Positions 5,268-48,314 of a stretch of 64,000 nt of DNA are shown here, in pieces. The translations under genes were made by a program, and so were the position numbers. The stretch comes from a bacterium (lineage in GTDB: Bacteria; Patescibacteriota; Patescibacteriia; UBA9934; GWF2-40-263): NCBI GenBank assembly GCA_020057555.1, contig JAGVFR010000026.1, positions 22,631 through 86,630 of the forward strand, written 5' to 3'. How positions within the stretch are numbered: position 1 is the stretch's first letter; every line of letters starts with the position of its first letter. The notes below the pieces were generated by a model that saw only the letters and a list, made by a program, of their open reading frames with translations, did not search any database and was not told where the DNA came from.

Positions 5268-5306
5268 ATAAAAAGAAAAGCGGCGCCGAACATAGTTCGA
5301 GCGCCG
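5268..5306 (-). terminator. intrinsic terminator of the candidate large ncRNA
   Basis: Minus strand: CGGCGCTCGAAC-TAT-GTTCGGCGCCG stem-loop (5306-5281) followed by CTTTTCTTTTT. Confidence 0.65.
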
Positions 5307-6348
5307 TAAGAAGAGAGAGGAGAGACCGAGTTCGGACTCTCAAGATGACGTGGTTTGCCCAGTGGTAGGGAGTGGGAACGACTCTTTGCGAAACGCTGTT
5401 CAGCATTCAGGATCTCCTTACGGAGCTCACTAAACACTTCACAATATCTCACTTTAAGTCAATTTCCACTCCCGAACCACTCCTTGTCGACATGCAACGC
5501 GCTTTCGTTTGTTGCTTCGTCTAGGGAACTGTTGCTTCCACAACTGGTTTTAAGGTGATGCCCCGAAGAGCTTCTCCAAAAAACTGGTTGTTTTAGCTTG
5601 AGTTTCAGGTTTTCACCTTGACTCCAGACCTTGTAACGGTTGTCGACTTGGCTCTGCAGAGCTATCAACGCCTTTGTCACTGCTCCCTGAAGCTTGCGCT
5701 TTTAGGTAGCGGTTTGGAAGGAGAAGAAAGTCTACAGATGGACTGATCAGTGGTGAGCTTAAGCTCGTGTTTTCACTCAGGTAGAGAGTTTATCCTTTTT
5801 ACAGGACTTATCTCTATTTATTCCTTCTCATTGGTTACCCTTTGAGAACACGATCATCGTTTCACTCAAACACAGAGGTAAACTGTGTCCAAGCTTGACA
5901 ACTTTCATGGACTGATATCCTCGAGGATTAATCGAGGACCACTGGTCTTTGCCGGTTTACACCGAGTCTCAAGTTTTTGAAGCCTGCTATGTGTTTTCGA
6001 TCAGCTATCACAGCTATTTGAACTCGAGTTACCCCAAGCTCACTTCGCTCTGGTGATAAACTAACCTTGCCAGCATTTTGGCTTCGCAACTTGTCCAGCT
6101 TTGTTTACTGATTCGTAGAGCACATTCTCTTGGGAGCCCTTTCGGGTTCTTCAGAAGACGTGTCTACGACACAGTTTCCGCTGGCATGATCCGGTTTTAG
6201 ACCGGCCGGCTTTTTTAAGCCGTTTGCTTGAAGGGTTTGACCAGTTTGCACCGGTACAGCCCTTTTCGCGACCCTCCCGAAGGAGAGTTCAGCCTTCCGA
6301 AGAAGGCCTTGTCTACCAGAGCAACTTACATTGCCTTGGCTGACGGTA
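5272..6348 (-). ncRNA. candidate large (~1.08 kb) structured non-coding RNA, class unknown
   Basis: Bounded by a sigma70-like promoter and an intrinsic terminator, with no credible ORF. Three C(UUCG)G hairpins (6292-6307, 6274-6285, 5560-5571). GAAA-capped hairpin 6134-6149. Further helices at 6191-6205 and 5918-5938. Confidence 0.55.
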
Positions 6349-6383: not shown

Positions 6384-6419
6384 GAGCTGTAAAATCGCTG
6401 GTTTTTGAAAAACTTGTCT

Positions 6420-6444
6420 ATTTATCCACAAAGTTGTGGATAAA
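6420..6444. promoter_or_regulatory. inverted pair of perfect DnaA-box nonamers (11-bp-arm palindrome)
   Basis: TTATCCACA at 6422-6430 and TGTGGATAA at 6435-6443. The whole TTTATCCACAA-AG-TTGTGGATAAA is palindromic. It lies about 40 bp upstream of the ncRNA -35 box. Confidence 0.45.
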
Positions 6445-6453
6445 TTTAAAAAA

Positions 6454-6524
6454 GAGCGGTTGTGCTATGTCTCCGTGCCAGCGGACTCCTCGCCGCTGTT
6501 CACTTCGACATAGCACAACCGCTC
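6454..6524 (-). repeat. conserved-core hairpin element, copy 1 (acts as prfA terminator)
   Basis: Outer stem GAGCGGTTGTGCTATGTC / GACATAGCACAACCGCTC. Core AACAGCGGCGAGGAGTCCGCTGGCACGGAGACAT on the minus strand. Followed on the minus strand by TTTTTT. Confidence 0.65.
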
Positions 6525-6537
6525 TAATTAACGATCT

Positions 6538-7605
6538 TTATTGATCTAATTGCTCCGCGATTTCAGCTTCTCTTAATGCGGAAAATAATTCATCGAGGCC
6601 GCCATTCATAAAAGTGGTGATATTGTGAAAGTTTTCATTTATACGATGGTCTGTGATTCGATCTTGCGGAAAATTGTATGTTCGAATCTTTTCTGATCTG
6701 TCTCCGGTTCCGATTTGTCCTTTTCGAGCATCACCACGTTCCTTGTGGGCTTTTTCTTGTTCAAAAGCAAACACACGCGCGCGAATAATCGAAAGAGCAC
6801 GTTCTTTGTTTTGTTTTTGTGAACGTTCTTCTTGGCAAGAAGCCATTATTCCAGTTGGAATGTGTGTGATGCGTATTGCCGAGTAGGTTGTGTTTACACT
6901 CTGTCCGCCATGGCCACCTGCTGTTGTTGCCTCGATGTTTAGATCTTCCGGTTTGATTTGCACATCAATTTCTTCAACTTCAGGCAAGATCGCGACTGTT
7001 ACAGTCGATGTATGCACACGACCTTGTTTTTCCGTTTCTGGCACGCGTTGAACTCTATGAACCCCGCTTTCGTATTTGAGTCGGCTATAAACATTATGGC
7101 CTTTGATTGTCAAAATAATTTCTTTGAATCCTCCGATTTCGTTTCTGTTGGATGAAATGAGTTCTGTTTTCCATGCATGTTGTTCTGCATAAAGCATGTA
7201 CATACGCATCAGTTCTGCGGCAAAAAGCGAGGCCTCGTCTCCTCCAGCGCCGGCTCGAATTTCAACGATTGTATTTTTTTTGTCCAGAGGATCAGATGGA
7301 ATAAGCGAATGCAAGAGTTCTTTTTCAAGTAACGGGAGCTTTGCTTCCAGAGTTTCAATTTCAGTTTGCGCAAGTTCATGCATTTGTTCGTCTGTTGATT
7401 CTTTGAGTGTTTCTTTTGCTCCGTTTAAATCTACCATGACTTTTTCATATCGTTTTGCAACGTCCATGACTTCTTTTAGATCTGAATATTCTTCACTTAC
7501 TTCACGCATTTTTTTTGGATTAGAAAGAACTTCGGGTGAAGATAACTTCAATTCGAGTTCTTGGAATCGGTTTTTTGTTGATTGTAGTTTATCGAGTAAA
7601 GACAT
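6538..7605 (-). CDS. prfA: peptide chain release factor 1
   Basis: 355 aa with GGQ motif (GGHGGQSVNT). Codon-recognition tripeptide region reads RVQRVPETEKQGRVHTS (P-x-T type, RF1-like). Confidence 0.9.
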   Translation of the reverse strand: MSLLDKLQSTKNRFQELELKLSSPEVLSNPKKMREVSEEYSDLKEVMDVAKRYEKVMVDLNGAKETLKESTDEQMHELAQTEIETLEAKLPLLEKELLHSLIPSDPLDKKNTIVEIRAGAGGDEASLFAAELMRMYMLYAEQHAWKTELISSNRNEIGGFKEIILTIKGHNVYSRLKYESGVHRVQRVPETEKQGRVHTSTVTVAILPEVEEIDVQIKPEDLNIEATTAGGHGGQSVNTTYSAIRITHIPTGIMASCQEERSQKQNKERALSIIRARVFAFEQEKAHKERGDARKGQIGTGDRSEKIRTYNFPQDRITDHRINENFHNITTFMNGGLDELFSALREAEIAEQLDQ

Positions 7606-8089: not shown

Positions 8090-9181
8090 ATGACACAAAT
8101 TACAGAATTCAATTATCATCTTCCAAGAGAGTTAATCGCACAATGCTCTGTCCAGCCTCGCGACCAATCACGGCTCATGGTTTTGGATAAACAAACAGGG
8201 AAGTTGAACCACAAGAAATTTTTTGAGATTGTTGATGAGTTGAAAACAGGTGATGTACTTGTATTTAATGATACAAAAGTTTTTAGAGCCCGGCTCAAGA
8301 CGCAAAATGGAATTGAGATATTTTTGTTGCGTGCGCGGGAAGACGATATTTGGGAAGTTTTGGCGCGTCCGGGAAAGAAGTTGCAGGTTGGACAAACACT
8401 TTGTATTGAACATGAAACAGAAAAACTTTGTGGAGAAGTGATGTCAAAACAATCAGACGGAACTGTTTTGATAAAATTTGATCGCGTACCAAATGACGTA
8501 ATCGCGTTTGCAAATATATACGGAGAGATTCCTATTCCTCCTTATGTGAAAAATATACCGGAGCGATTGGAAGATTATCAAACGATCTATGCAAAAGAGA
8601 CAGGTTCTGTTGCGGCGCCAACAGCCGGTTTTCACTTCACAGAAGATCTTATGGAAGAATTAAAATCAAAAGGCGTGCAATTCGAATTTGTAACACTTCA
8701 CGTTGGAATTGGAACTTTTCGTCCAATGAAAACAGAAACGATCGAGGAACATGAAATGCACAGCGAGTTTGTTTCTGTCTCAAAAGAGACAGCAGATCGG
8801 ATCAATCAAGCAAAAAAAGATGAGCGACGCGTGATCGCTGTTGGAACGACAACAGTTCGTACACTTGAAGGAGTCGCAAATTATCCCCTGAGCGAAGGTC
8901 AATTAGGCCTTCGACAGGCTCAGGCAATAATTGACCGAAGTCGAATGGGTAATTTTTATCTTCCAGATGGTTTTACAGGCGACGTTAATCTATTTATCAA
9001 ACCAGGCTTTGATTTCAAAATAATTGATGGGCTTATAACGAATTTTCATTTACCAAAATCAACATTACTGGTTTTGGTTTCGGCTTTTGCTGGAAGAGAA
9101 AATGTTTTGCGCGCGTATGAAGAAGCAGTTGCGCAACAGTATCGTTTTTTTTCCTTTGGCGACGCGATGTTTATTGCTTGA
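8090..9181 (+). CDS. queA: S-adenosylmethionine:tRNA ribosyltransferase-isomerase
   Basis: 363 aa with QueA blocks TAGFHFT, TLHVGIGTFRP, AVGTTTVRTLE, ITNFHLPKSTLL and YRFFSFGDAMFI. Carries an in-frame repeat-element insertion at about 8885-8950. Confidence 0.9.
   Translation: MTQITEFNYHLPRELIAQCSVQPRDQSRLMVLDKQTGKLNHKKFFEIVDELKTGDVLVFNDTKVFRARLKTQNGIEIFLLRAREDDIWEVLARPGKKLQVGQTLCIEHETEKLCGEVMSKQSDGTVLIKFDRVPNDVIAFANIYGEIPIPPYVKNIPERLEDYQTIYAKETGSVAAPTAGFHFTEDLMEELKSKGVQFEFVTLHVGIGTFRPMKTETIEEHEMHSEFVSVSKETADRINQAKKDERRVIAVGTTTVRTLEGVANYPLSEGQLGLRQAQAIIDRSRMGNFYLPDGFTGDVNLFIKPGFDFKIIDGLITNFHLPKSTLLVLVSAFAGRENVLRAYEEAVAQQYRFFSFGDAMFIA
8885..8950 (+). repeat. MITE-like palindromic element inserted in-frame in queA (copy A)
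   Basis: Arms CCTGAGCGAAGG / CCTTCGACAGGCTCAGG. The 26-mer GCCTTCGACAGGCTCAGGCAATAATT (8907-8932) is identical to 57312-57337 and 25/26 identical to 34816-34841. Confidence 0.7.
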
Positions 9182-21674: not shown

Positions 21675-22946
21675 ATGGATTATTTTGAAACAGGAGTTGC
21701 TTGGCCGGATGTGAAATGTCCGGTCATAGCAGAACGGCCGTTAAGAGTCGCAAACGGACGTTCAGATGGACACACAGTGATCTCATCTCTCAAAGTTGTC
21801 GTACTTGTTAATGGTTGTTTGTATGCCGTTCTTGAGGATGGTCATGGATTGCGAGCAGGTGACATACTTTCTCGCAACTTTGATCTAACTCGAAAAAAAG
21901 GATGTGATACAACAGAACCAACTGAGCAAGTTTTCGTTCGTTACAAGAGTATATTTGACGCACGTCGTGGAATAGGGCGCGTTTATGGCCGATATCGGGA
22001 AATCGAAATTCCTGAATTGGCTCGCTGGAAAATGGATACAGATTGGTTGTTTCGAACTTCGTGGACGCTACATCGCGCAACAAAGGAGCAAGAAGAGCAA
22101 TTCGTCTGGCAAGCCGAGCGTTGTATCAAGAAGCACGAGAAAGACACATCCGAAATCAAACTTGACGCGCTCCGTCGGTTATTAAAGATTCAGACAATGA
22201 CGGACTCACTCGGCCGACGAAACACAACTATGATTCCTATGTTGTGCTGTGCTATTGACCGATCACTTGAAGCTCGCACACAGCAAGTTCGCGGAATTGG
22301 AAGACGAATGGATTGGCGTGCAATGGTGCTTGAGCACGTCATTGATCAGATACAAGCCGAATGTCGGGCTATCCGTCGAGCCGCGTTGGACGTTCTTCAA
22401 GCAAATGATATCTTCGGAGAAGCGCGTACGCCAAGAACATTGCGCGGTCGCGCGAATCGAATAAGCGACTACGCGGAATTCCTCAAAATAGTTCAAGTTC
22501 GGACCTTCACACGCGTGTTTGCGCACGTTGTTAGTGAACTCAAAGAGGTCGCTGAACTTTTTCATGACGCGGCTAGTAAGCGTGACAGTGGACATCTTGA
22601 ACGTGCTCGTCTGCTTCTTGGCAAGATATATCGTTCAATGATTTTACTTGAACAGCACTGGCGGCTTGAAGAGGTTTTGGTAGTTGTCAGTTCACACGTT
22701 CACAACGGTGAAGTCCTATCTGCTTATCAGATTCGTCTTTTCACAGACGAACTTGATGAAGTGCATCGCACATTGACCAATCCAGACCCTGTTACTGGAG
22801 TCCACATTGATACGGACTTTGAGACAGATGTGTTGCCAATCGTTGTTGGCAATGTGCTTTCTTGTCTGACTAATCTTCGAGGTGAAGACGACGTATTTCT
22901 TCCGTCGTTGTATGACGACTTGAAGATCGCGTGCAAACCTCTCTGA
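21675..22946 (+). CDS. hypothetical protein (orphan, composition-atypical, Arg-rich helical)
   Basis: 423-codon ORF behind GAGGGAAAG. No family recognised. Own terminator. Confidence 0.55.
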   Translation: MDYFETGVAWPDVKCPVIAERPLRVANGRSDGHTVISSLKVVVLVNGCLYAVLEDGHGLRAGDILSRNFDLTRKKGCDTTEPTEQVFVRYKSIFDARRGIGRVYGRYREIEIPELARWKMDTDWLFRTSWTLHRATKEQEEQFVWQAERCIKKHEKDTSEIKLDALRRLLKIQTMTDSLGRRNTTMIPMLCCAIDRSLEARTQQVRGIGRRMDWRAMVLEHVIDQIQAECRAIRRAALDVLQANDIFGEARTPRTLRGRANRISDYAEFLKIVQVRTFTRVFAHVVSELKEVAELFHDAASKRDSGHLERARLLLGKIYRSMILLEQHWRLEEVLVVVSSHVHNGEVLSAYQIRLFTDELDEVHRTLTNPDPVTGVHIDTDFETDVLPIVVGNVLSCLTNLRGEDDVFLPSLYDDLKIACKPL

Positions 22947-29584: not shown

Positions 29585-30178
29585 ATGCGAAAGTATTTCT
29601 TTGTCATTGCTGGATTATTGATTCTACTTGGCGCCGGATGCGCGTCTAAACCATCTGAAGAAAATTTAAATATAACTTTTGACGAACCTGTGACAGACAC
29701 AAAAACACAAATATGGGAATTTCCCGGCGTGCTTTCTTCAGAAGAAATTTCAAATAAATTAATTCGCATTAAGACCGCAAAGGGCGATATTGTGTTTGAA
29801 TTGTTTGCCGATACCGCGCCAAAGACTGTTTCGAATTTTGTGTATTTAACAAAAGGTGGATATTTCAATGGACTTACATTTCATCGTCGTGAAGAAGGGT
29901 TTGTCATTCAGGGTGGCGACCCAAGTGGAAACGGAACAGGCGGCCCTGGTTATGAATTTGAAGATGAAGTTACTGACTCGTATCAGTACGAACGCGGAAT
30001 TGTTGCAATGGCAAATCGCGGTCCAAACACAAACGGTTCACAGTTTTTTGTAATGTTGGGTGATGTTCCACTTCCAAAAGCTTATTCAATTTTTGGACGC
30101 GTGATCGAAGGAATGGAAGTTGTGGATCAAATCCAAGTTGGAGATGTGATGGAATCAGTCGCGGTTGAAGCAAAATAA
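29585..30178 (+). CDS. cyclophilin-type peptidyl-prolyl cis-trans isomerase, lipoprotein
   Basis: Lipobox LLGAGC. FHRREEGFVIQGGDPSGNGTGGPGY and GSQFFV motifs. Start refined to ATG 29585. Confidence 0.85.
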   Translation: MRKYFFVIAGLLILLGAGCASKPSEENLNITFDEPVTDTKTQIWEFPGVLSSEEISNKLIRIKTAKGDIVFELFADTAPKTVSNFVYLTKGGYFNGLTFHRREEGFVIQGGDPSGNGTGGPGYEFEDEVTDSYQYERGIVAMANRGPNTNGSQFFVMLGDVPLPKAYSIFGRVIEGMEVVDQIQVGDVMESVAVEAK

Positions 30179-30179
30179 T

Positions 30180-31334
30180 ATGTCAAAGAAACACTGGCTG
30201 ATTATTTTATCGCTCGTGTTTTTGATTGGAATCATTATCATTCTGAAGCCGTCCTTTTGGACGGATGAAGAATCTCGCGGGATCCTTCGTTTAACTCAAG
30301 ATGACAAAGGAGGACAGAGGACGACAGAGAATGAGGTGGTCGCACACATTCCTCTTCCAGACGAAGTTCGTGGATTATATTGGACAGCTTCAACTGCCGG
30401 TTCTGAACGATCTGACGAGTTGCTTTCATATATGAATGATCATGGACTCAATGCAGTTGTGATTGATCTTAAGATGGATAATGGTCAAATTGCGTTTATT
30501 ACAAAAGATGAAGCATTGAGTGTTTATCAACAAACAGAATCAGCGATTGGTGATTTAGATGGTCTTCTCACGAAACTTTATGATAGTGGAATTTATAGGA
30601 TTGCTCGTATTGCTATTATGCGCGACAAAAAGTTTGGAGAAATACATCCTGAATTTGCGATGAAACAATCAAATGGCAATTTTTGGACAGATAAAATTGG
30701 TTCAGTTTGGGTTGATCCTGCCGCCCCAGAAGTCGCGCAATATGCGATTGCGCTTGCGCGTGAAGCTTATGCACGTGGGTTTGATGAAGTTCAATTTGAT
30801 TATGTTCGTTTTGCTTCAGATGGATCAATAAACTCGATCGTCTATCCTGTTTATAGTGGAGAAAAAAGTAAGGTTGAAGTAATGCAGAGTTTTTTCAAAA
30901 CAGTTGGAGAAACAATGCAGAAAGAAAAAATTCCTGTTTCGTTTGACGTTTTTGGTATGACTTTTTGGTCGTTTGATGATTTCAACATTGGCCAGCGACT
31001 TATTGATGTGTTGCCTTATGCTGACTTTGTTTCACCAATGGTTTATCCGTCTCATTATGTTGACGGGTTTGAAGGTTTTGCGAACCCGGCTGAATTTCCG
31101 TATGAGATAGTTAAGCGTTCGCTTAATGAAGGAACGAGAATAATTCACGGTTTTTACGCTGATTCAGATGTTGAACTTCGCGCGCATTGGAGGCCGTGGC
31201 TTCAGGATTTTGATATTGGCGCAGTGTATACATCTGATTTGGTTGAAGCGCAGATAAAAGCGACTCGCGATGCTGGCGCTTCTGGTTGGATACTTTGGAA
31301 CGCTCGCAATGTGTACGAACCCGCGGATTATTAA
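30180..31334 (+). CDS. putative glycoside hydrolase (DUF4015-like)
   Basis: N-terminal TM. TIM-barrel-like blocks NAVVIDLK and GFDEVQFDYVRF. Start refined to ATG 30180. Confidence 0.6.
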   Translation: MSKKHWLIILSLVFLIGIIIILKPSFWTDEESRGILRLTQDDKGGQRTTENEVVAHIPLPDEVRGLYWTASTAGSERSDELLSYMNDHGLNAVVIDLKMDNGQIAFITKDEALSVYQQTESAIGDLDGLLTKLYDSGIYRIARIAIMRDKKFGEIHPEFAMKQSNGNFWTDKIGSVWVDPAAPEVAQYAIALAREAYARGFDEVQFDYVRFASDGSINSIVYPVYSGEKSKVEVMQSFFKTVGETMQKEKIPVSFDVFGMTFWSFDDFNIGQRLIDVLPYADFVSPMVYPSHYVDGFEGFANPAEFPYEIVKRSLNEGTRIIHGFYADSDVELRAHWRPWLQDFDIGAVYTSDLVEAQIKATRDAGASGWILWNARNVYEPADY

Positions 31335-31336
31335 AG

Positions 31337-31405
31337 GAGCGTGGAGCTGTGTCGCAGGGAACAGCGGCGAAGAGTCCGCTGGCCCGGAGACATAGCTCCA
31401 CGCTC
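31337..31405 (+). repeat. conserved-core hairpin element, copy 2 (between convergent genes)
   Basis: Outer stem GAGCGTGGAGCTGTGTC / GACATAGCTCCACGCTC. Core AACAGCGGCGAAGAGTCCGCTGGCCCGGAGACAT. T-rich tract follows. Confidence 0.65.
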
Positions 31406-31423: not shown

Positions 31424-32359
31424 CTACTCTCCAACCTCTTCCACTTCTTCAGCCTCTTCAGTTTCACCTGCTTCTTCAGCCGCCGCTCTTCGTCGTTTTT
31501 CAAGTTCAATCTTATCTTCCAATTCTTTTTGCATCATTTCTCTTCGTCTTTTAATCAACTCTTTTGCTTCCTCAACTTTTTGCTTAACCATTTCGCGTCG
31601 TCTTTCTTCAAGCTGTTTTAATTCCTCTTCTGCTTTTTCTTCTCCTTGCGCAACACGCTCGCGAAGAGCTTTAGCCGCTTCAATGTGTTCACGGATCTCC
31701 AGCGCATGAGCTTCGATTCTGTCTTTTACGTCTTGAAGATGGTCTCGGATTTCTTCTGGAATTTTTTCATTATTGATTGCGTTTTCAAGTCTTCTGGCTC
31801 GGAGTGCCATTTCTTCTCTTAACTCGAGAATCTCATTTTTTGTTTCGTCTGTTGCTTTTTCTTCCAACCGATCCATAATGCGGCGATGTCGTTCTAATTG
31901 TTTTGCGCGATTTCTCAACAAGCGTTCTGTTTCTTCATTTGGGTTTTCAAGCGCGGCATCTTCTTTGTTTTCAGATTCGTCCATCATGTTATTTGCAATC
32001 TCGAGCATTCGTCTGGCTCGTAGTCGCAATTTTTCTCCATCACTTTTTTCGTACATTTTTTCTGCAATAAGCATTCGTTCTTCCGCGTATTTTATTGCGC
32101 GTTCTGCTTTGAGATTATTATTAAATGTCAAAGCAAGTGCCAAGCGTTCTCGAATGGATCTTATAAAAAGTCCAAACTCTGAAGGAAGTTCAGTCTGTTC
32201 ATCAACAACAATTCCCTCATATTCTGTGTCTTCTGTGGCGATTGATGTATCATTTACACTGGTCGTGTTGCTTATACTATCTGTTTGAGCCAAGGCTGGC
32301 GTTACGAAAAGAAAGAGCGATGTGACTAAAATTGGAAACATGTAATGTTTATTGCGCAT
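31424..32359 (-). CDS. secreted coiled-coil protein, Glu/Arg-rich
   Basis: Signal-peptide-like N-terminus (LFLFVTPALAQ), long E/R/K heptad-like region and an acidic tail. Possibly DUF5667-like (weak recollection). Confidence 0.55.
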   Translation of the reverse strand: MRNKHYMFPILVTSLFLFVTPALAQTDSISNTTSVNDTSIATEDTEYEGIVVDEQTELPSEFGLFIRSIRERLALALTFNNNLKAERAIKYAEERMLIAEKMYEKSDGEKLRLRARRMLEIANNMMDESENKEDAALENPNEETERLLRNRAKQLERHRRIMDRLEEKATDETKNEILELREEMALRARRLENAINNEKIPEEIRDHLQDVKDRIEAHALEIREHIEAAKALRERVAQGEEKAEEELKQLEERRREMVKQKVEEAKELIKRRREMMQKELEDKIELEKRRRAAAEEAGETEEAEEVEEVGE

Positions 32360-34854: not shown

Positions 34855-36252
34855 ATGCTTTCTCGAATTACTGAAAAAACTTTCTATCAATACATCAAAT
34901 GCCCGAATTGGGTTTACTTTGATGTGCATGCATTTGAAAAACGAGTTCGTGATCCTCTTATGGATCGCTTGATTGATGATGGGCTTCTTGATGAAAAACA
35001 GCGTGAGATCATTTCTGATCGCACTGACATGGTAGAAGTTACATCTGAAGATCCTGATGAAGCGTTTCGACAAACACTTGAGTTTATGCGCGAAGGTCGT
35101 CAAACGATTTTTCACTCTGTACTCATTGATAAAAATTTTGTTGGACATCCTGATGTGCTTGAAAAAGTTGAAGGGCGTTCGAAGCTTGGTGATTTTTATT
35201 ATGTTGCGGTTGATCTTAAACGTTCACGTTTTTTACGCGACGATCATAAATTTCAAGGATGTTTTTATGCTGAACTTCTTGAACGAATTCAAGATGTGAA
35301 GCCTGTTCAAGGTTACATCATCACACCTGACAAAATTGTTTTGCCATATTTGATTAGTGAGTTTGAAGGAGAATTCACTCTTACACTTTCAGAGATTGAA
35401 AAGATTATTGTTGGCACACAGCCAGTTCATTTTGTAACTTCAGGATGTAAACAATCACCATGGTTCAAAGAATGTCGTGGTGAATCCGAAACGTGCGATG
35501 ATTTGTCGTTATTGAATCGAGTTTGGCGTCAAGAAGTTGCTCGTTTGTTAAAAGCAGGAGTCAACACAATATCGGAACTTTCGCTAAAATCTTTGGTTGA
35601 TCTTGAGCGTTTGGCTCCTGATGTTAGTTCATCTCGGCTTGAGATTATGCGCGATCAAGCAATTGCGATAAAGGAGCATCGGCATATTTTTCGTGGAACG
35701 GTTGAACTTCCTGTTGCAAAGATCGAAGTTTTTTTTGATATTGAAAGTGATCCGCTTCGAGATTTTGATTATCTTTTTGGAGTGCTTGTAGTTGAAAATC
35801 GCAGTGAATCGTATCAATCGTTTTTTGCGGTAACTCCAGCGCAAGAAAAAGACGCGTGGGATGAGTTTGTCGCTTTTGTTGAAGGACATTTGGACGCGCC
35901 GATTTATCACTTTGGTCAGTTTGAAGTTGAAGTTGTTAATCGTTTTAGCGCGCGATATGGGATTTCTGCGATTGCGCGAGAAGCGCTTGAACGTAACATG
36001 ATTGATTTGCTTGAAGTGATTCGTCCTGCTGTAATTTTTCCTTTGTCATTTTATTCGCTCAAAGATATTGCCGCTTATTTGGGTTTTGAGTGGCGTGCTT
36101 CTGACGCATCTGGTGCGAATTCTGTTTTGTGGTTTGAAGAATGGTTGAAGAAAAAAAATCAAAAGTTGTTGCAAAAAATTCTTGAGTATAATGAAGATGA
36201 CGTGCGCGCAACTGCTCATGTAAAAAAATGGTTATGTGAAAATGCAATATGA
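34855..36252 (+). CDS. TM0106-family RecB-like nuclease
   Basis: N-terminal ITEKTFYQYIKCPNWVYF (PD-(D/E)xK/Cas4-like region), DIESDP exonuclease-like block and C-terminal YNEDDVRAT, typical of the family. Confidence 0.7.
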   Translation: MLSRITEKTFYQYIKCPNWVYFDVHAFEKRVRDPLMDRLIDDGLLDEKQREIISDRTDMVEVTSEDPDEAFRQTLEFMREGRQTIFHSVLIDKNFVGHPDVLEKVEGRSKLGDFYYVAVDLKRSRFLRDDHKFQGCFYAELLERIQDVKPVQGYIITPDKIVLPYLISEFEGEFTLTLSEIEKIIVGTQPVHFVTSGCKQSPWFKECRGESETCDDLSLLNRVWRQEVARLLKAGVNTISELSLKSLVDLERLAPDVSSSRLEIMRDQAIAIKEHRHIFRGTVELPVAKIEVFFDIESDPLRDFDYLFGVLVVENRSESYQSFFAVTPAQEKDAWDEFVAFVEGHLDAPIYHFGQFEVEVVNRFSARYGISAIAREALERNMIDLLEVIRPAVIFPLSFYSLKDIAAYLGFEWRASDASGANSVLWFEEWLKKKNQKLLQKILEYNEDDVRATAHVKKWLCENAI

Positions 36253-37189: not shown

Positions 37190-37663
37190 ATGGACTACAT
37201 TCTTGGTGGATCACTTGGTGCAATTGTCGCTTTCATTTTCGCAATTCCCGCGATCGTTCTTGAGATCAAGCAAAAAGGTGAAGCGACTGATGCTCCGCTA
37301 ATTGTTGATGCGCGAAAAATTTTCGGTCGTCGTCTAAAAAAGCAAGAAGCATTTTTGGTTGGCTTGCTCATCCATATTATTTTTGGATTCTTGTTTGGAT
37401 TGATTTACGTTTTATTTGTTTTGCAAGGATGGCTGTTTGTCACGCACGCGCCATACACATTTTTGTCTTTAATTGTTTATGCGTTATTAAGTTGGATTGT
37501 CGCAGGAGTTGTTATTTATCCCGCGCTTGGTATGGGATTGTTTGCACGTCGTGAAGGAAAACACGTTTGGATTGAAACTCTCACGTCGCATTTGATTCTT
37601 GGAATTTGTTTGTGGCTTCTTGTTCAATATTATCAGCCACAGTTTTTTATTATTCCAATTTAA
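37190..37663 (+). CDS. hypothetical polytopic membrane protein
   Basis: 157 aa with about 4 hydrophobic helices. No family recognised. Confidence 0.5.
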   Translation: MDYILGGSLGAIVAFIFAIPAIVLEIKQKGEATDAPLIVDARKIFGRRLKKQEAFLVGLLIHIIFGFLFGLIYVLFVLQGWLFVTHAPYTFLSLIVYALLSWIVAGVVIYPALGMGLFARREGKHVWIETLTSHLILGICLWLLVQYYQPQFFIIPI

Positions 37664-37668
37664 ACTAG

Positions 37669-37841
37669 TCGTTGCGAAGCCGAACCATGTCTCCGGGCCA
37701 ACGGACTTTTCGCCGTTTGTGTTGTCCGGTCTGGCTTTCAGACAGACATCGGCCAACCCGTTTCGGAGGTACGAAGCCAAGCAGTTGGCTTCTTTACTCC
37801 TCCTCTACTCCCTTCGACATGGTTCGAGCTTCGCAACGACA
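37669..37841 (-). repeat. conserved-core hairpin element, copy 4 (expanded, 173 nt)
   Basis: 24-25-nt outer stem GTCGTTGCGAAGCCGAACCATGTC / GACATGGTTCGAGCTTCGCAACGAC. Core on the minus strand AAACGGCGAAAAGTCCGTTGGCCCGGAGACATG. Inner hairpin GAAGCCAA-GCAG-TTGGCTTC. Confidence 0.6.
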
Positions 37842-37846
37842 GAAAT

Positions 37847-39040
37847 GTGAATACTCTCCGCACAATTTCAGTTGCAGAATTTATCAAGCTTGTAAACGAA
37901 ACTCTGCGACTTATTCCGTCGCAGGAGTTTGTTGTTGAAGGTGAAATTTCCGATTTTCGAATTGCGCAAGATAAGTGGATCAGCTTTGATTTGAAAGATG
38001 AAAATGGAGAAGCAGTGCTTAAGTGTTTCATGACAACTTGGCAATTGCGTGTACAGATAGAAGATGGAATGCGTGTGCAAGTCCGTGGAACTCCAAAAGT
38101 TTATGAGCGATACGGGCAGTTCAAAATGAATGTTCAGGAAGTCGAGCCTGTTGGAGAAGGAGCTCTTAAACGCGCGTACGAACTTTTGAAAAAGAAACTT
38201 GAGCAAGAAGGTTTGTTTGATGTTTCGCGCAAACGTTCTTTGCCGCGTTTTCCAAAACGAATCGGTCTTATCACTTCTCGCGATGCGGCCGCGTACGGCG
38301 ACTTTCTTCAAATTCTAAACAACCGTTGGGGAGGCGTTTCAGTTTTTCATTTGAATGTTCATGTTCAAGGCAGGGAAGCAGTATCAGATTTACTCGGAGC
38401 GTTTGAGTATTTCAATGAGTTGTCTGATACAGAGCGTCCCGATGTCTTGGTTCTTACTCGTGGTGGTGGAGGGTTGGAAGATTTACACGCATTTAACGAC
38501 GAGAGTGTTGCGCGCGCAGTATTCGGTTCAAAAATTCCAGTTGTGTGTGGAGTCGGACATGAACGTGACGAATCGCTTTGTGATTTTGTTGCTGATGTTC
38601 GCGCGTCAACTCCATCAAACGCGGCAGAAAGAGTTGTTCCAAACAGAGAAGAAGTTCGTTATGAAATTGAGATGATGTGTCAACATTCTGAAGAGCGTTT
38701 GCTTAACCAGTTGAGTCAGAAATCATTGATTGTTGAACGCGCAACAAATGTGATAGGGCGAATCATTAGTCAACAAAATGAACGGCTGAAGCATTTGCGT
38801 CAGAGATTTTTTGACGTGACTCATGTTTGGGCGCCAGCGCTTTTTGATCAAATAGATGGATTTGAAAAGATTTTGCGACAACTTGATCCAAAACGTGTGC
38901 TTGCTCGCGGCTACGGAATTGTTACGATAAACGGCCAAGTCTTAAAGGATGTTTCATCACTTGAAATCGGAGCTTCTGTTGGAGTACAATTGGCAAAAGG
39001 CTCATTTGAATCTTATGTCACAAAAAAAGAAAACAATTGA
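37847..39040 (+). CDS. xseA: exodeoxyribonuclease VII large subunit
   Basis: 397 aa (GTG start). OB-fold N-terminus and a conserved GLITSRDAAAYGDF...RGGGGLEDL block. Confidence 0.9.
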   Translation: MNTLRTISVAEFIKLVNETLRLIPSQEFVVEGEISDFRIAQDKWISFDLKDENGEAVLKCFMTTWQLRVQIEDGMRVQVRGTPKVYERYGQFKMNVQEVEPVGEGALKRAYELLKKKLEQEGLFDVSRKRSLPRFPKRIGLITSRDAAAYGDFLQILNNRWGGVSVFHLNVHVQGREAVSDLLGAFEYFNELSDTERPDVLVLTRGGGGLEDLHAFNDESVARAVFGSKIPVVCGVGHERDESLCDFVADVRASTPSNAAERVVPNREEVRYEIEMMCQHSEERLLNQLSQKSLIVERATNVIGRIISQQNERLKHLRQRFFDVTHVWAPALFDQIDGFEKILRQLDPKRVLARGYGIVTINGQVLKDVSSLEIGASVGVQLAKGSFESYVTKKENN

Positions 39041-42430: not shown

Positions 42431-42730
42431 CTTACTCTTTTTTCTAGTTTGTTGTGCAAGTATTTAGATCGTCCGTATCCTCTGTTCTTGATCGTTGTCG
42501 TGAGTCGAAGAGGATAACCAACGTAAGTGGCGGTGGCTTATTTCTCGACGGCGTGGATCGACGTAGATGACCAAACGATTTTACTTTTAGTCTCAATACA
42601 TTCAATAAACTACACAAGAGACAGTTACGGGACATTTTTTCTGCCGTTGGTTCTGTATGAAGGCCAAGAAAAAGGAGTTCCGTCTGTCTCCACTGGAACA
42701 AACGATGGTTGAAGGTGGATAAAAAACAGA

Positions 42731-44881
42731 CTATCTCGCAACATGACTCGGGGCGATGGAGTAAAGTTTTGAGCCGGAGAGAAGATAGATTGTGTATCCC
42801 GATTCATCAACAATTACATCTGTCATGTTTTGGAATGCGTCGGAATGATACTGCACAACAAACGCTCCTGTCTCTTTGTTGAAAACAACCAAACGTTTTG
42901 TGTCCGGTTCAAGTACATACAAATACGCGCTGTCAGTGTCAGTCCAGATGTCGGTTGCGTTTGTGATCGGTGGATCAACAACTCCTGTTTCCCATCCGAC
43001 TTCGCTTCCACTTACAAATCGCGTGATTTTTCCATTTTTCATTAAGACAAAAACCGTTCCATCAATAGTGAATGAACGTGCGTCTTTAAGCGCTGTTGTT
43101 TTTGAAGCAATCCATTTTGCAGGCGCGCCAAATCCATCTCCACTTCTACCATAGCGATAAACTTGTCCGTCAGTTTCTGTTTGCGTCAAAATGTATAGTC
43201 GGTTTGCATACGCAAGCAGATCAATCCATTTTCCTTCTATCTGTTCTAGGCTGATTGGTTTTTGTGCTGACTCATCTTTTATGAATTGAGAAACAACGTT
43301 GTTGTCGGTTAATGAGTAGACCTTATCTTTGTCAGCGCTTGCTGAAAGTGAAACTCGCGCGTTTGTTTCTTGAACACTTGCTGGTTTGAATACTTTTTGT
43401 GTTCGATCAAGTTGGTATACACGACCGTCTGTTGCAAAGACATAAATATCAGAACCGACTTTCACAAATGATTGTCCAAACACTCCATCAGTCACAGATG
43501 CCAGATCTCCGAGCAATGCTGGATTTGGAACGTTCACCAAATGTCGAATATCATCCATTGATTTTTGCATTTCAAGTCTTAGATCTTCTGTCTTTTGAAT
43601 TCGCTCCTCTGTATTTGTCGGAAGTTGATCGATAAGGTTTGCAGCATTCACAAATAAACTTCGAGCTTGATTTTCGTCCTTGTAAATAATTGCTCCTGTT
43701 GCGCGCTCCATTAGATCTGTGATCGCATCGATTTTTTGTTGATAGGCTTGTTCATCTTGTGATCGCGCTCGGCTTGATGAGAAAAGTGAAATGCTTACAA
43801 TCAAAACTACAACAACAGCGGCAATGCCACCTAAAAGATATTTCTTGGATCGATCCATGTGTGTGAACGATCTAACAAGCCTTTGGAAGTTTCCTTGAAA
43901 TTCCAGTCGTCCCTCTTTTGTCATTAAGTGTTGTGTAGTTTTAACGGATTTTCTGGTTGCACGTCGAATCCAACGCCAAATAAGCTTCCAAATCTCCTTT
44001 TCAACAAATTTTTTAGTGCGAACTTTAAGTGTTTCAATTAAGGTATTAAGCTTCGGTGTTTGATCAGCAAGTAATTCTTGTGTTTCATCTTCTTGGTTTT
44101 TGAAATGCTGAACCGAGACATTTGTTTTAAGAGTTGCGTGTTGTTCACCCTTATTTTGAGCTGATATGTCTTGAGCTTTAATGACCACCAACAACAGAGC
44201 GGTTTTAAGTGGAAAATATTGTCGAATTTTTTCCGTGGCTCCAGAAGGCGGAAGTGTTGTGAGAACAGTGTTGAGTTCATCAGCAGCCAAAGCTCTTTGT
44301 AAGTCAACGTTTGAAATTGTAAAAACATCACCCTCGTGCAAGTCACCATCAAGAACAACAGCAAATGCTTTTTCCCAAGTTGGAAATGATTGTTCTGATT
44401 GAATGCTGTGAAACAGATTGAAGACTTGATAGCGCTGTGAAGGTCTGCGGTGAAGAAACAGTGCAGTTAAATCTCCAGTTCCTGACAAAAACATTTGATG
44501 TTCACATGCAATACCAAGCACTGCGTCAAATTGTTCAATTGGAACATTCCATCGCCCGTCTCTAACATTTTGCGCGAGTGTTTCGTTTAGTGCACCAAGA
44601 AATTGTTCAAAGCGATGCTGTGCGTTTGCTTCAGAGCCGAAAGAGTCTGCAAGCCTGTGGATTTGATCTGACAAAAGTTGGGAAAGCATTTCAGCATCCT
44701 GGGTTTGTTTCTGGCATCGAGCAACCAAAAATACCCAACCACTTCTTTCTTGTAGCGGTAAAAGCACGCAAATGCCTTCAATTCGTTCTTCTGGGGATCG
44801 TGGGCAGTATTCAGCTGCCTTAAGGTTTAGAGTCATACTTTTGATGTTTCCATTTGCCCTCCTGTTACCATTTGTGTACAT
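42731..44881 (-). CDS. large hypothetical membrane protein
   Basis: 716-codon ORF with a central TM helix (LLGGIAAVVVVLIVSISLF) and a beta-rich C-terminal half. No family recognised. Start uncertain (44881 or 44836). Confidence 0.55.
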   Translation of the reverse strand: MYTNGNRRANGNIKSMTLNLKAAEYCPRSPEERIEGICVLLPLQERSGWVFLVARCQKQTQDAEMLSQLLSDQIHRLADSFGSEANAQHRFEQFLGALNETLAQNVRDGRWNVPIEQFDAVLGIACEHQMFLSGTGDLTALFLHRRPSQRYQVFNLFHSIQSEQSFPTWEKAFAVVLDGDLHEGDVFTISNVDLQRALAADELNTVLTTLPPSGATEKIRQYFPLKTALLLVVIKAQDISAQNKGEQHATLKTNVSVQHFKNQEDETQELLADQTPKLNTLIETLKVRTKKFVEKEIWKLIWRWIRRATRKSVKTTQHLMTKEGRLEFQGNFQRLVRSFTHMDRSKKYLLGGIAAVVVVLIVSISLFSSSRARSQDEQAYQQKIDAITDLMERATGAIIYKDENQARSLFVNAANLIDQLPTNTEERIQKTEDLRLEMQKSMDDIRHLVNVPNPALLGDLASVTDGVFGQSFVKVGSDIYVFATDGRVYQLDRTQKVFKPASVQETNARVSLSASADKDKVYSLTDNNVVSQFIKDESAQKPISLEQIEGKWIDLLAYANRLYILTQTETDGQVYRYGRSGDGFGAPAKWIASKTTALKDARSFTIDGTVFVLMKNGKITRFVSGSEVGWETGVVDPPITNATDIWTDTDSAYLYVLEPDTKRLVVFNKETGAFVVQYHSDAFQNMTDVIVDESGYTIYLLSGSKLYSIAPSHVAR

Positions 44882-45982: not shown

Positions 45983-46660
45983 ATGGATTTTACCAATGTT
46001 CTTCAAGGACCAGTCCTTGAAATGTGGGACATTGTTTTGGCTTATTTGCCAAATCTATTGGGTGCAGTCATCGTGTTTTTGATTGGCGTTATCGTGGCTC
46101 TTGTTCTAAGAAGCGTTGTCGAGCAAGTGATCAAGCTTTTGCGCATTGATGATCTTGCGCAGAAACTTGAGATCCGATCGCAGTTTGAGCGTTTCGGAGT
46201 AAGTCTTCACATTGGTCACCTTTTGGGTTGGATTGTGAAGTGGTTCTTCGTTATCGTTGCTTTGATCGCGGCAACAGACATCTTGGGCTGGGAACAGTTG
46301 ACATCCTATCTTCAAGAGATCGTTCTATTTATTCCAAACGTAGTAATTGCTGTTATCATTTTGCTTGCAGGAATTTTGCTTGCTAACTTTGTACAGCGCG
46401 TTGTGAAGTCTGCAGTTGAAGCCGCGAAACTTACGTCAGCAAGTTTTCTATCAGGAGTTGCAAAATGGGCAATCTTGATTTTCAGCTTTATGGCAGCGTT
46501 AGTGCAGTTGGAAATCGCACCAGATTTGATCCGTGTTCTGTTTACAGGTCTTGTATTTATGATTGCACTTGCAGGCGGACTTGCATTTGGTCTTGGTGGA
46601 CGCGAACAAGCAGGGAAACTTCTTGAACGTCTTCGCAAAGATATTTCTTCAGACAGATAA
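45983..46660 (+). CDS. hypothetical polytopic membrane protein
   Basis: 225 aa with repeated TM helices, possibly a conserved-TM-helix repeat type. No firm family call. Confidence 0.5.
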   Translation: MDFTNVLQGPVLEMWDIVLAYLPNLLGAVIVFLIGVIVALVLRSVVEQVIKLLRIDDLAQKLEIRSQFERFGVSLHIGHLLGWIVKWFFVIVALIAATDILGWEQLTSYLQEIVLFIPNVVIAVIILLAGILLANFVQRVVKSAVEAAKLTSASFLSGVAKWAILIFSFMAALVQLEIAPDLIRVLFTGLVFMIALAGGLAFGLGGREQAGKLLERLRKDISSDR

Positions 46661-48144
46661 TGGTTACTTATAAGTACGGTAAAATGAGATTTTGGGAAAT
46701 GTTCCCCGGCCTTCTGGTTTGGGGAACTTTTTCACTTGCAATTGTTTTTTCATTTTTTCAACCGCTTTGGGTTATCATCGTAATTATTGTTTTTGATCTT
46801 TTGTGGTTGTTTAGGGTTATATATTTCAACATTTTCATTATTGCCGCATGGGTAAAATATCGTCGCACAAAAAAAATTGATTGGGCTAAACAGTTAGAGA
46901 CGCTTCCGTGCCCAAACGAAACATATCATTTGATTTTTCTTCCAACATATCAGGAAGAATATGACATTATTCATGGTACGCTTCGATCTTTGGGTGAAAA
47001 TACGTACGACAATAAGCGAATGATTATTGTGCTTTGTGGTGAAGAGGCTGATCGTGTTCGGTTTGAAAATGTGAGTGCACAAGCTTTGACAGAGTTTGGT
47101 TCAGTGTTTAAAAAACTCTATACAACAATTCATCCACGCGGTTTATTTGATGAAATTCCTGGTAAAGGTTCAAATTTACATTTTGCTGGAAACGAGATTG
47201 CTAAACGTTTAGCAATAGATTTTTCTGAAATTAAAGACGAGCATATTGTTGTCTCCGCGTTTGACATTGATACGATCGCTCATCCTCAATATTTTTCATT
47301 ACTCACATATCTTTATTGTACTATTGAAAATCCTACACATTCGTCATATCAACCAGTAACGCTTTTTTCAAATAACATTTGGACAGCTTCAGCTCCTGTT
47401 CGAATTGGTGCTTTTGGAACAACGTTTTGGTTGTTTGCAGAATTGGCTCGTCCAGAGCGACTTTGGACTTTCTCGTCTCATTCAATGCCGTGGAAGATGC
47501 TGAAAGATGTTGGATTTTGGCAAAAAGATATTGTTAGTGAAGATTCACGAATTTTTATGCAAGCATTCATGCATTACCACGGCGACTATCGTGTGACACC
47601 AGTTTTTTTACCGGTTTCAATGGATGCGGTTTTTGGAAAAACTTATTTTGAATCATTAAAAGCTCTTTACGTTCAAATGCGGAGATGGGCTTGGGGGATT
47701 GAGCATCTTCCGTATCTCATAGATGGTTTTCGAAATGATCCGCTCATTCCACTTCGCACAAAAATAAAATATGTGTTCAACCATATAGAAGGGATGTTCA
47801 CATGGGCGACAGCACCTCTTATCATGTTTGTTTTGGGATGGCTTCCGCTTTGGCTTGCAAAAGGAGAGTCAAATGCAATTGTCCAAGCGGCTCCGTTTAC
47901 ACTTGAACAGCTTATGCAATCTGCAATGATTGGAGTGCTTGTTTCTGCGGCCCTTGCTTTAACATTGTTGCCACGCCGTCCAGATAGTGTTCATAAACAC
48001 ACATGGATCGTAATGATATTACAGTGGATTCTTCTCCCGATCACTTTTATTTTATTTGGATCAATTCCAGCGATCGACGCACAAACGCGGTTGATGTTGG
48101 GAAAGTATTTAGGGTTTAAGGTTACGAAAAAAGTTCGCGCATAA
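46660..48144 (+). CDS. membrane glycosyltransferase, GT2-like (processive-synthase-like)
   Basis: N- and C-terminal TM clusters around a cytosolic domain with acidic motifs (AFDIDT, SEDSRIF) and QMRRWAWG (QxxRW-like). Confidence 0.5.
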   Translation: MVTYKYGKMRFWEMFPGLLVWGTFSLAIVFSFFQPLWVIIVIIVFDLLWLFRVIYFNIFIIAAWVKYRRTKKIDWAKQLETLPCPNETYHLIFLPTYQEEYDIIHGTLRSLGENTYDNKRMIIVLCGEEADRVRFENVSAQALTEFGSVFKKLYTTIHPRGLFDEIPGKGSNLHFAGNEIAKRLAIDFSEIKDEHIVVSAFDIDTIAHPQYFSLLTYLYCTIENPTHSSYQPVTLFSNNIWTASAPVRIGAFGTTFWLFAELARPERLWTFSSHSMPWKMLKDVGFWQKDIVSEDSRIFMQAFMHYHGDYRVTPVFLPVSMDAVFGKTYFESLKALYVQMRRWAWGIEHLPYLIDGFRNDPLIPLRTKIKYVFNHIEGMFTWATAPLIMFVLGWLPLWLAKGESNAIVQAAPFTLEQLMQSAMIGVLVSAALALTLLPRRPDSVHKHTWIVMILQWILLPITFILFGSIPAIDAQTRLMLGKYLGFKVTKKVRA

Positions 48145-48234
48145 AATCACTTTCATAGGATGGTTGTTTTCTTGTGGCGTATTGCTTAACATACTCGATA
48201 GCGTGATCTATCCGCACTAACATAGTTAACCGAG

Positions 48235-48307
48235 GATCAGTTTGCATCATGTCGTAAGGAACAACGGCGAAGAGTCCGTTGGCCCGGAGATATGGTGCAA
48301 ACTGATC
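48235..48307 (+). repeat. conserved-core hairpin element, copy 3
   Basis: Outer stem GATCAGTTTGCATCATGTC / GATATGGTGCAAACTGATC. Core AACAACGGCGAAGAGTCCGTTGGCCCGGAGATATG with compensatory CAACGG/CCGTTG. Confidence 0.65.
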
Positions 48308-48314
48308 CTAGATT

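Follow-up and report, generated by a model that had tools for sequence, protein, structure and literature searches.

A hairpin family with a conserved apex and variable stems in Candidatus Uhrbacteria, with features of a mobile palindromic repeat

Rickettsia palindromic elements (RPEs) insert in frame in Rickettsia genes, SPRITE is a terminator-like miniature inverted-repeat transposable element (MITE), BOX elements are modular, and terminator-like or modular MITEs can insert into one another (PMC10969869). Repetitive extragenic palindromic (REP) hairpins are recognised by TnpA(REP) strand-specifically, as folded single-stranded DNA (ssDNA), a recognition for which their bulges and loops are required (PMC8266576), and the biology of REPINs offers a further precedent (PMC3116915). 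Here we describe a family of hairpins from Candidatus Uhrbacteria, four copies of which are present in a 64,000-nt stretch of DNA (the window; positions 22,631 to 86,630 of the forward strand of contig JAGVFR010000026.1, assembly GCA_020057555.1), with copy 2 as the focal element (Table 1). The element is built of a 13-25-bp outer stem of nearly any sequence, closed by YUGUC/GACAR, and of a conserved, asymmetric, purine-rich apex.

Like RPEs, the Uhrbacteria element is a short palindrome of small, host-dependent genomes, found between genes and in frame within conserved genes (queA and tgt), with its structure kept (PMC10969869). RPEs, however, are ~100-150 bp long, are conserved along their whole length and encode a conserved peptide, whereas the Uhrbacteria element spans 45-175 nt, is conserved at its apex only, has variable arms and is read in different frames in tgt; neither sequence homology to RPE families nor a conserved encoded peptide was found, and the phylum also differs. 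With REPs and REPINs it shares the character of a high-copy extragenic palindrome, often placed at gene 3' ends, in either orientation and without target-site duplication (PMC8266576, PMC3116915). REPs are 20-40 nt long and have a conserved stem preceded on its 5' side by an unpaired GTAG, and REPINs are inverted REP pairs; in the Uhrbacteria element, in contrast, the stem is the variable part, GTAG is replaced by GNAG (N variable), located in the internal loop, and the conserved apex comprises three helices. No gene for a RAYT (Y1 HUH transposase) was annotated among the neighbours in the 8-21-kb samples by which each relative's metagenome-assembled genome (MAG) was represented. SPRITE, BOX, Correia/NEMIS and ERIC are also small non-autonomous repeats that form stable hairpins in transcripts, some of them terminators or processing sites (PMC10969869), but MITEs carry the conserved terminal inverted repeats of a parent insertion sequence (IS) and target-site duplications; the Uhrbacteria element has neither, and its ends vary.

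Two further comparisons concern gene ends. A stable gene-end hairpin is shared with intrinsic terminators, and copy 1 and its orthologue in the MAG JACPHT are followed by T6; unlike terminators, the family has stems of 17-25 bp with a conserved 35-nt apex, no T-run in ~75% of the copies, and many antisense or intragenic members. The attC sites of integrons carry R''/L''...L'/R' boxes (RYYYAAC...GTTRRRY) at the base of a hairpin whose variable apex has very different sizes. Both they and the Uhrbacteria element conserve the structure, not the sequence, of a hairpin that lies at gene 3' ends and is recognised on one strand, but the pattern of conservation is reversed, GTTRRRY was not found at the variable stem base of the aligned copies, and the Uhrbacteria neighbours (prfA, xseA, smpB, queA) are core genes, not cassettes. 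A structured, conserved centre with free arms is the reverse of the REP/MITE architecture and, combined with three exchangeable apical modules, is new among small interspersed palindromic repeats.

Distribution and fold of the family

The degenerate 26-nt core CGGCGARRAGTCCGYTGGCMCGGAGA has exactly four matches in the window, and none of 100 dinucleotide-preserving shuffles of the window held any match, in agreement with the four hairpin copies sharing a core that were reported in a preliminary description of this DNA. A covariance-model scan, also proposed there, recovered over the entire window, with filters off, only these four copies, the runner-up matches being ordinary hairpins of <=20 bits; copies 1, 2 and 3 scored 94.9, 92.5 and 84.8 bits, respectively. 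These three short copies are single hairpins with minimum free energies of -53.4, -52.5 and -48.0 kcal/mol (z -8.7, -10.9 and -9.8), and the expanded copy 4 folds at -92 kcal/mol (z -8.5). The density of the element in the window, four in 64 kb, is roughly 1 per 15 kb.

A core-pattern scan over 185,579 species genomes returned 33 loci, 26 of which are real copies and seven chance matches in high-GC genomes, without a hairpin. The real copies belong to the Candidatus Uhrbacteria MAGs JACPHT, JACRJU and JACQXU, to the syntenic Parcubacteria MAG VGKU and to one 'Gammaproteobacteria' contig (L017). A gammaproteobacterial host was rejected for this contig, which we assign to the Candidate Phyla Radiation (CPR) because its tgt gene is closest to Parcubacteria/Uhrbacteria tgt genes. 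More divergent copies were recovered with the covariance model within those loci and on contigs fetched through prfA/tgt homologues, and 38 short copies were gathered from about ten related Candidatus Uhrbacteria (CPR) assemblies. No copy was seen in 21 kb of the sister genomes JBGGHI, JBFOMN and JACPHU. The window is 80-88% identical in nucleotides to JACPHT contig 8 across syntenic genes, and its genome therefore represents a sister species of JACPHT.

Similarity outside Uhrbacteria was not found in the species-genome, viral or metagenome scans or in blastn searches. Relaxed-pattern scans gave no match in IMG/VR viral sequences and seven matches in JGI metagenomes, all of them due to chance and none with a hairpin, and blastn against phages and plasmids gave no match to the element. 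Rfam 15 at gathering thresholds had no match in the entire window and, in E-value mode, chance matches to microRNA precursors only (~20 bits, against thresholds of 45-100). According to ARAGORN and the Rfam models there is no tRNA or transfer-messenger RNA in the window, and the long form is not tRNA-like by ARAGORN. A full-text literature search found no report of the core sequence or of Uhrbacteria repeats. The family is confined to one Candidatus Uhrbacteria (CPR/Patescibacteria) clade, was previously undescribed and matches no Rfam family.

In the short form of the element (70-80 nt), the outer stem is followed by an apical module consisting of a 3x3 purine loop (GNA/GGA), a 3-bp helix (P2), an AA bulge and a helix of 6-7 bp that contains a bulged U and is capped by a GNRA-type loop. 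Copy 2 has a 17-bp outer stem, a symmetric 3x3 internal loop with GCA opposite GGA, the AA bulge opposite a single G, and an inner hairpin formed by a 6-bp helix with the bulged U, a C-G closing pair and a GANNA pentaloop. Across the family, the final four outer-stem pairs (UGUC/GACA) hardly vary, and the conserved unpaired bases, ~12 nucleotides, are all purines on the element's strand. In other copies the apical loop is GAGGA, GAUGA, GACGA, GAAAA, GACAA, GACCA or a GACA/GAUA tetraloop, and we regard it as GNRA-type because these tetraloops replace the pentaloop in some copies. The boxB hairpin of lambda and P22, 15 nt long and located inside the nut site, is bound by N protein. It is a structural analogue, since the GANNA pentaloop of the Uhrbacteria element (GAAGA, GACAA) is closed by C-G and alternates with GACA/GAUA, which is the behaviour of a GNRA-fold pentaloop, but there is no sign of antitermination for the Uhrbacteria element. 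A kink-turn was ruled out, as the loop is a symmetric 3x3 one and the register needed would break the AUGUC/GACAU stem. SECIS, domain IV of the signal recognition particle, RNase P CR-I similarity, the sarcin-ricin loop and the hammerhead, twister, hairpin and pistol ribozyme cores gave neither a fit nor an Rfam match.

The fold is kept through compensatory change. In the 27 ungapped copies, 95.6% of the cells are paired, in comparison with 72.7% after shuffling and 33-40% with slid partners, and double changes occur at 20 of the 30 pairs (covariation score 0.614 vs 0.166); for the 38 copies (alignment A6), 96.5% of the cells are paired (72.6% shuffled, 33-41% with slid partners), with double changes at 22 of the 30 pairs (0.651 vs 0.173). 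In both sets the observed values of pairing and covariation were reached by no shuffle. Covarying pairs are present inside the conserved module itself: 31/57 (GC/UA), 30/58 (GC/AU), 37/52 (AU/GC) and 38/51 (CG/GC). The inner-helix covariation noticed earlier between window copies (CAGCGG/CCGCTG vs CAACGG/CCGTTG) is real and is accompanied by that of a second helix (GGG/CCC vs GTG/CAC); P2 appears in the family as GGG/CCC, GUG/CAC or AGG/CCU, and covaries even across the insert of the long form (GUG/CAC in L015). Outer stems described as completely different are indeed so for the family across genomes, those of JACRJU, VGKU, L017 and L047-L049 being unrelated to one another and to the consensus GAGCGGTT(T)GTGCCATGTC, but not within the window, where copies 1-3 fit this consensus together with the JACPHT copies. 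Since the stems vary without losing their pairing and the core is conserved, we conclude that a folded nucleic-acid structure is constrained, and the selection on structure, beyond a generic terminator, that the preliminary description had proposed is supported.

This constraint is strand-specific. Among the wobble cells of the outer stems, G·U or U·G exceeds A·C or C·A by 25:8, and on the strand of the element itself G·U exceeds A·C by 24:5, antisense copies included. Split by context, the G·U:A·C counts are 6:0 for sense, 13:2 for antisense and 5:1 for convergent copies; the bias thus tracks the element's own polarity and not the host messenger RNA (mRNA). G·T is the most tolerated mismatch in DNA hairpins, and for this reason the wobble test shows strand specificity yet cannot separate RNA from ssDNA.

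Genomic sites, size variants and turnover

Copies can sit in frame inside conserved genes. In L047 an element (6402-6485, +) lies within queA on the minus strand, and a protein alignment places a 33-residue insert, absent from four orthologues, including the window, L045 and L044 proteins, between conserved blocks of the encoded QueA. In L017 the element lies within tgt: Pfam TGT covers residues 10-386 of the product, and alignment to solved TGT structures reveals an extra loop at residues 171-199. The L048 tgt gene, 85% identical to that of L017, has an element in the same loop, with different stems and in another frame, and the two insertion peptides are unrelated (...DEGSSGDKSAGPESRS... vs ...MPEGTTATSPLARRHD...) with the core nucleotides kept. 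Because the tgt copies are read in different frames, with unrelated peptides, the constraint must act on the nucleic acid and not on the peptide. We also observed other lineage-specific in-frame inserts in the same genes, PLSEGQLGLRQAQAIIDRSRMGNFYLPDG in the window QueA (8090-9181; columns ~328-360 of alignment A4), ...HPEPFDFAQGKLREGSFI in the JACPHT QueA (L043) and ...VREIASVGTELPRNDS... in the TGT protein P0123, which may be translations of other repeat families.

Copies also turn over fast between sister genomes, with gain and loss, inversion, relics and apical swapping. At the convergent site of copy 2 and its JACPHT orthologue (L028), the flanks align to the reverse complement of L028 and the core to its forward sense, and the core is therefore inverted at an orthologous position. 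Copy 3 has no counterpart in the orthologous JACPHT spacer (L005 1456-1584), and at the site of copy 4 the orthologous JACPHT and JACQXU spacers are shorter, with only decayed, end-like fragments (CCCTTCGAC...GTCGAAGG, ...TTCGCAATGAC). Conversely, JACPHT and JACQXU have an antisense copy between the members of a gene pair that, in the window, share an ATGA overlap (36249-36252), and another JACPHT copy is without counterpart in window 42494-42732. A truncated 3' half-core relic directly adjoins the copy of L029, and L010 (JACRJU) and L029 (JACQXU) are near-identical hairpins at different loci, the gene identity being only about 65-73%.

Three apical sizes were identified: a mini form with an 11-nt loop, a short form of 35 nt and a long form in which two extra arms create a 4-way junction. 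Four long copies are known, copy 4 of the window and three in JACPHT (L015 167-327, L021 and L022), whose insert of ~100 nt between P2 and the inner hairpin is 95% conserved and has a 4-way junction as consensus fold; copy 4 keeps the outer stem, 3x3 loop, P2 and inner hairpin, its insert forming the two extra arms of the junction. Different forms are found downstream of prfA: a short one in the window, a short one of the GACA-tetraloop subfamily in JACPHT (L043 11103-11186; hairpin and T6), a long one in the closest relative, L041 (prfA 96% identical), where the contig ends within the element, a mini one with UGUC/GACA closure and the 11-nt loop GAGAGCUCGCA in L047, after an extra nucleoside triphosphate-transferase gene following prfA, and an unrelated long hairpin in L044. 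Two mini copies of L047 share their outer context (TCCTGAYAGAC...GTCCACCAA) with a short copy of L049. Since forms differ at the prfA site and mini and short copies share an outer context, the apical module is exchangeable on a persistent hairpin.

Two side observations concern the long form. The L041 contig (ERZ27249422 k141_229385) has its 3' end at 11215, inside the long form, and the repeat therefore probably breaks metagenome assemblies. In JACPHT, a structured element of ~200 nt upstream of prmC (L043 12458-12675), not present in the window, has arm A of the long form (…GAGAAGCCAACTGCTTGGCTTCGAACCTCTGAGACGGG…) without the conserved core, which suggests a wider pool of modular structured repeats.

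Table 1. Copies of the element in the window and parts of copy 2
Feature	Position	Strand	Core (26 nt)	Basis or context
Copy 1, short form	6453..6525	-	6470-6495	12 nt past prfA stop codon (6538-6540); then TTTTTT (6453-6448)
Copy 2, short form, focal	31337..31405	+	31365-31390	fold, core match, covariance model
Copy 2, outer stem 5' arm (GAGCGTGGAGCTGTGTC)	31337..31353	+		fold; pairs with 31389-31405
Copy 2, 3x3-loop 5' side GCA (consensus GNA), P2 5' strand GGG, AA bulge	31354..31361	+		fold, alignment
Copy 2, inner hairpin CAGCGG-C-GAAGA-G-U-CCGCUG	31362..31381	+		fold
Copy 2, unpaired G, P2 3' strand CCC, 3x3-loop 3' side GGA	31382..31388	+		fold, alignment
Copy 2, outer stem 3' arm (GACATAGCTCCACGCTC)	31389..31405	+		fold
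Copy 3, short form	48234..48308	+	48265-48290	90 nt past GT2 gene stop (46660-48144)
Copy 4, long form	37667..37843	-	37690-37715	~100 nt inserted between P2 and inner hairpin

In the window, copy 1 is probably the intrinsic terminator of prfA, a role that had been suggested before and that is plausible, hairpin and T-run being retained in the JACPHT orthologue. Copy 2 lies, as described, between convergent genes: at its start, 2 nt separate it from the stop codon of a DUF4015 glycosyl-hydrolase gene (30165-31334, +), and at its end, 18 nt from that of the convergent gene (31424-32359, -). The statement that three copies directly follow a stop codon does not apply to copy 3, which begins 90 nt past the preceding stop and ends 7 nt ahead of the ATG (48315) of the following glycosyltransferase gene, and copy 4 is antisense to both its neighbours (37190-37663, +, and xseA, 37847-39040, +).

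According to simple open reading frame (ORF) calls for 31 copies, 10 are sense and 14 antisense to the flanking genes, five are convergent, one is divergent and one (L017) is in a coding region, and covariance-model scores are alike across the sense, antisense, convergent and divergent classes. The neighbours are unrelated housekeeping genes (prfA, xseA, smpB, queA, peroxiredoxin, glycosyl hydrolases/transferases, L9, recO and aminoacyl-tRNA synthetase), with no association with particular genes among the flanking genes examined. A T-run (at least five T) adjoins the hairpin in ~8 of 34 copies (copy 1, L043, copy 2, L009b, L012, L023, L032 and L002) and is absent from the other ~26; these T-runs mostly point in the direction of the host gene, whichever way the core faces. 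With mixed orientations and T-runs in a minority, a gene-3'-end signal read in the sense of the upstream gene, as initially proposed, fails for the family, and the intragenic copies and the turnover and inversion at sites also contradict it; a minority of copies is well placed as terminators. No promoter carried by the element was found, as there is no box at a fixed distance in the upstream flanks inspected and the long-form repeat unit is the hairpin only.

Some additional features of the surroundings were recorded. Several reading frames of the element are often open, which can mislead gene callers: mechanical ORFs crossing it (L007 5747-7180, L020 1425-1973 and L030 152-1222) extend the N termini of a class II aminoacyl-tRNA synthetase, L9 and RecO by 25-100 spurious residues. 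Element orientation is uniform per long contig (9/9 and 5/5 on the plus strand, with neighbour genes facing both ways) in JACPHT contig 8 (L001, L005, L012, L015, L021, L028 and L043) and JACRJU contig 13 (L004, L008, L010 and L033). The C-rich strand carries the elements of JACPHT and JACQXU, most of those of JACRJU lie on the G-rich strand, and those of the window are split 2:2. Short motifs recur beside copies (L001 3100-3200 and 4560-4660, and upstream in L003, L004 and L006), namely CTTCGCTCATGG(T/A)A(A/T)AAC, (C/T)(A/C)GGATGACA, which lies 23-27 nt ahead of the hairpin, and ACTTTCGTAATTCA. Some of these motifs look like decayed halves of older elements, and ACTTTCGTAATTCA may be a promoter of the downstream gene.

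Explanations for the family

From the maintained fold, the asymmetric apex, the strand-specific constraint and the rapid turnover, including insertion into reading frames, we infer a mobile or concertedly evolving repeat. We consider it somewhat probable that the hairpins are a non-autonomous, structure-dependent, REP/RPE-like mobile palindromic repeat, some copies of which were co-opted as terminators. The preliminary description had raised the possibility that the core is a fragment of a known mobile element; it corresponds to no known one, but the family does behave like a mobile palindromic repeat. The spread or homogenisation of copies would involve the folding of one strand while single-stranded, and the recognition of both the conserved apex and the paired stem by a trans-acting enzyme. 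By analogy with REP/TnpA(REP) and the ends of IS200/IS605, the folded strand is more likely to be ssDNA than RNA. Once inserted, a hairpin would be open to use by the host, and a T-run in the direction of the neighbouring gene, as in copy 1 after prfA, would turn it into an intrinsic terminator.

Several observations weigh against a mobile repeat. No transposase or other candidate mobilising gene is present among the annotated neighbours in the sampled contigs, and the sampling of 8-21 kb per relative genome itself has to be counted here. Derivation from a nearby IS481-like element (L043 4657-5636) was ruled out, its 43-nt inverted repeats being unrelated, and neither a target-site duplication nor a conserved target sequence was found around the copies. 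The conserved motifs (GNRA-type loop, sheared-GA-like 3x3 loop, A bulge and bulged U) are typical of RNA, not of DNA. With respect to GC skew, JACPHT and JACRJU have opposite strand biases, and a simple lagging-strand ssDNA model is consequently not confirmed. At the sites shared between genomes (prfA 3' end, copy 2/L028, L001/L029 and the tgt loop) the core is intact and the stems are paired, and the neutral spacer next to them has diverged beyond alignment; repeated replacement explains intact shared sites no better than would purifying selection in place, and thus a host function.

The main rival, which seems to us rather unlikely, is a cis-acting RNA module of the host, located in 3' untranslated or intercistronic regions and acting as a terminator, as a site of RNase III-type processing or as a shield against exonucleases; its apex would bind a dedicated Uhrbacteria RNA-binding protein, and copies would be selected site by site, their spread being incidental. 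In at least three species the hairpin does persist downstream of prfA, together with a T-run, and window copy 1 and L043 differ by four double transitions in the stem and by GUG/CAC vs GGG/CCC; in addition, the motifs are RNA-like (GNRA-type loop, purine internal loops), G·U exceeds A·C, and T-runs, where present, follow the direction of the host gene. Nevertheless, of the 24 copies located between co-directional genes, 14 run antisense to the mRNA and still show the 13:2 G·U bias on the element strand, about three quarters of the copies have no T-run, and copies lie within the queA and tgt reading frames or, in one antisense case, split an overlapping gene pair. Presence/absence differences and decayed relics between sister species, and a repeat unit without promoter whose long form is the hairpin alone, are equally difficult to reconcile with a host module.

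It is conceivable, though unlikely, that the apex, whose mini, short and long versions can replace one another, is the core of a new CPR mobility system, either a site for a recombinase (HUH-like or other) acting on folded ssDNA or a self-processing RNA copied back into DNA. Such a system would explain why one strand is constrained, why copies insert into genes and hairpins, and why near-identical copies occur across species.

Gene conversion among dispersed terminator hairpins could by itself keep the core uniform, with neither recognition of the core nor transposition. The JACPHT prfA copy shares the GACA tetraloop and an A at position 51, both derived characters, with paralogues of its own genome and not with the window orthologue, and apical modules are swapped at fixed sites, as expected from conversion. 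However, we judge conversion alone improbable, as it leaves unexplained the new sites inside genes or at an operon junction, the invariance of ~25 positions over at least 10 assemblies with unrelated stems, and the strand-specific wobble bias. Least probable of all are free-standing small RNA genes or a self-processing RNA (ribozyme or protein sponge), with the long form as complete version and the short one as minimal version, spread as a multi-copy family: the ~12 conserved unpaired nucleotides, the optional arms round a junction, as in twister/hammerhead variants, the strand-specific constraint independent of neighbouring genes and the absence of an Rfam match, by which such an RNA would be new, are compatible with them, but there is no conserved promoter at a fixed distance, the repeat unit stops at the hairpin, copies lie within 2-40 nt of coding sequence or inside genes, and no cleavage-site signature is recognisable.

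Structured features near copy 1 and significance of the family

A gene-free region of ~1.07 kb (window 5271-6345, -) separates prfA/copy 1 from prmC, with a promoter-like CTCTTGACA-N17-TAAATT at 6386-6351 and a terminator hairpin with T-run at 5307-5271. It is 85-90% identical to JACPHT L043 11252-12400, has no Rfam match and contains many GNRA- or UUCG-capped hairpins with compensated changes (e.g., CUCUCC-UUCG-GGAGGG vs CCCCCC-UUCG-GGGGAG), and the same slot, promoter and start motif (G/A)TTACNNTCAG are found in L044, L045 and L047. These features make the region a candidate large structured non-coding RNA. Between the T-run of copy 1 and the promoter of this region, a perfect inverted pair of DnaA-box consensus sequences (TTATCCACAACTTTGTGGATAA; window 6422-6443) is conserved in L043, L044 and L045 as TTATCCAC-N6-GTGGATAA, the fuller TTATCCACN-N4-NGTGGATAA holding in the window, L044 and L045. 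The pair appears more operator-like than origin-like, because the GC skew keeps its sign there.

CPR/Patescibacteria have tiny, tightly packed genomes, in which repeats and non-coding elements have been little studied. The element described here reaches into essential genes, probably breaks assemblies and offers ready-made terminator hairpins. Its conserved centre and free arms constitute a clean natural data set of compensatory evolution, and in annotation a covariance model of the family would prevent false ORF extensions and flag in-frame insertions. The architecture points to a recognition system, based on a protein or an RNA, and identification of the partner would show how selfish DNA persists in the reduced genomes of symbionts.

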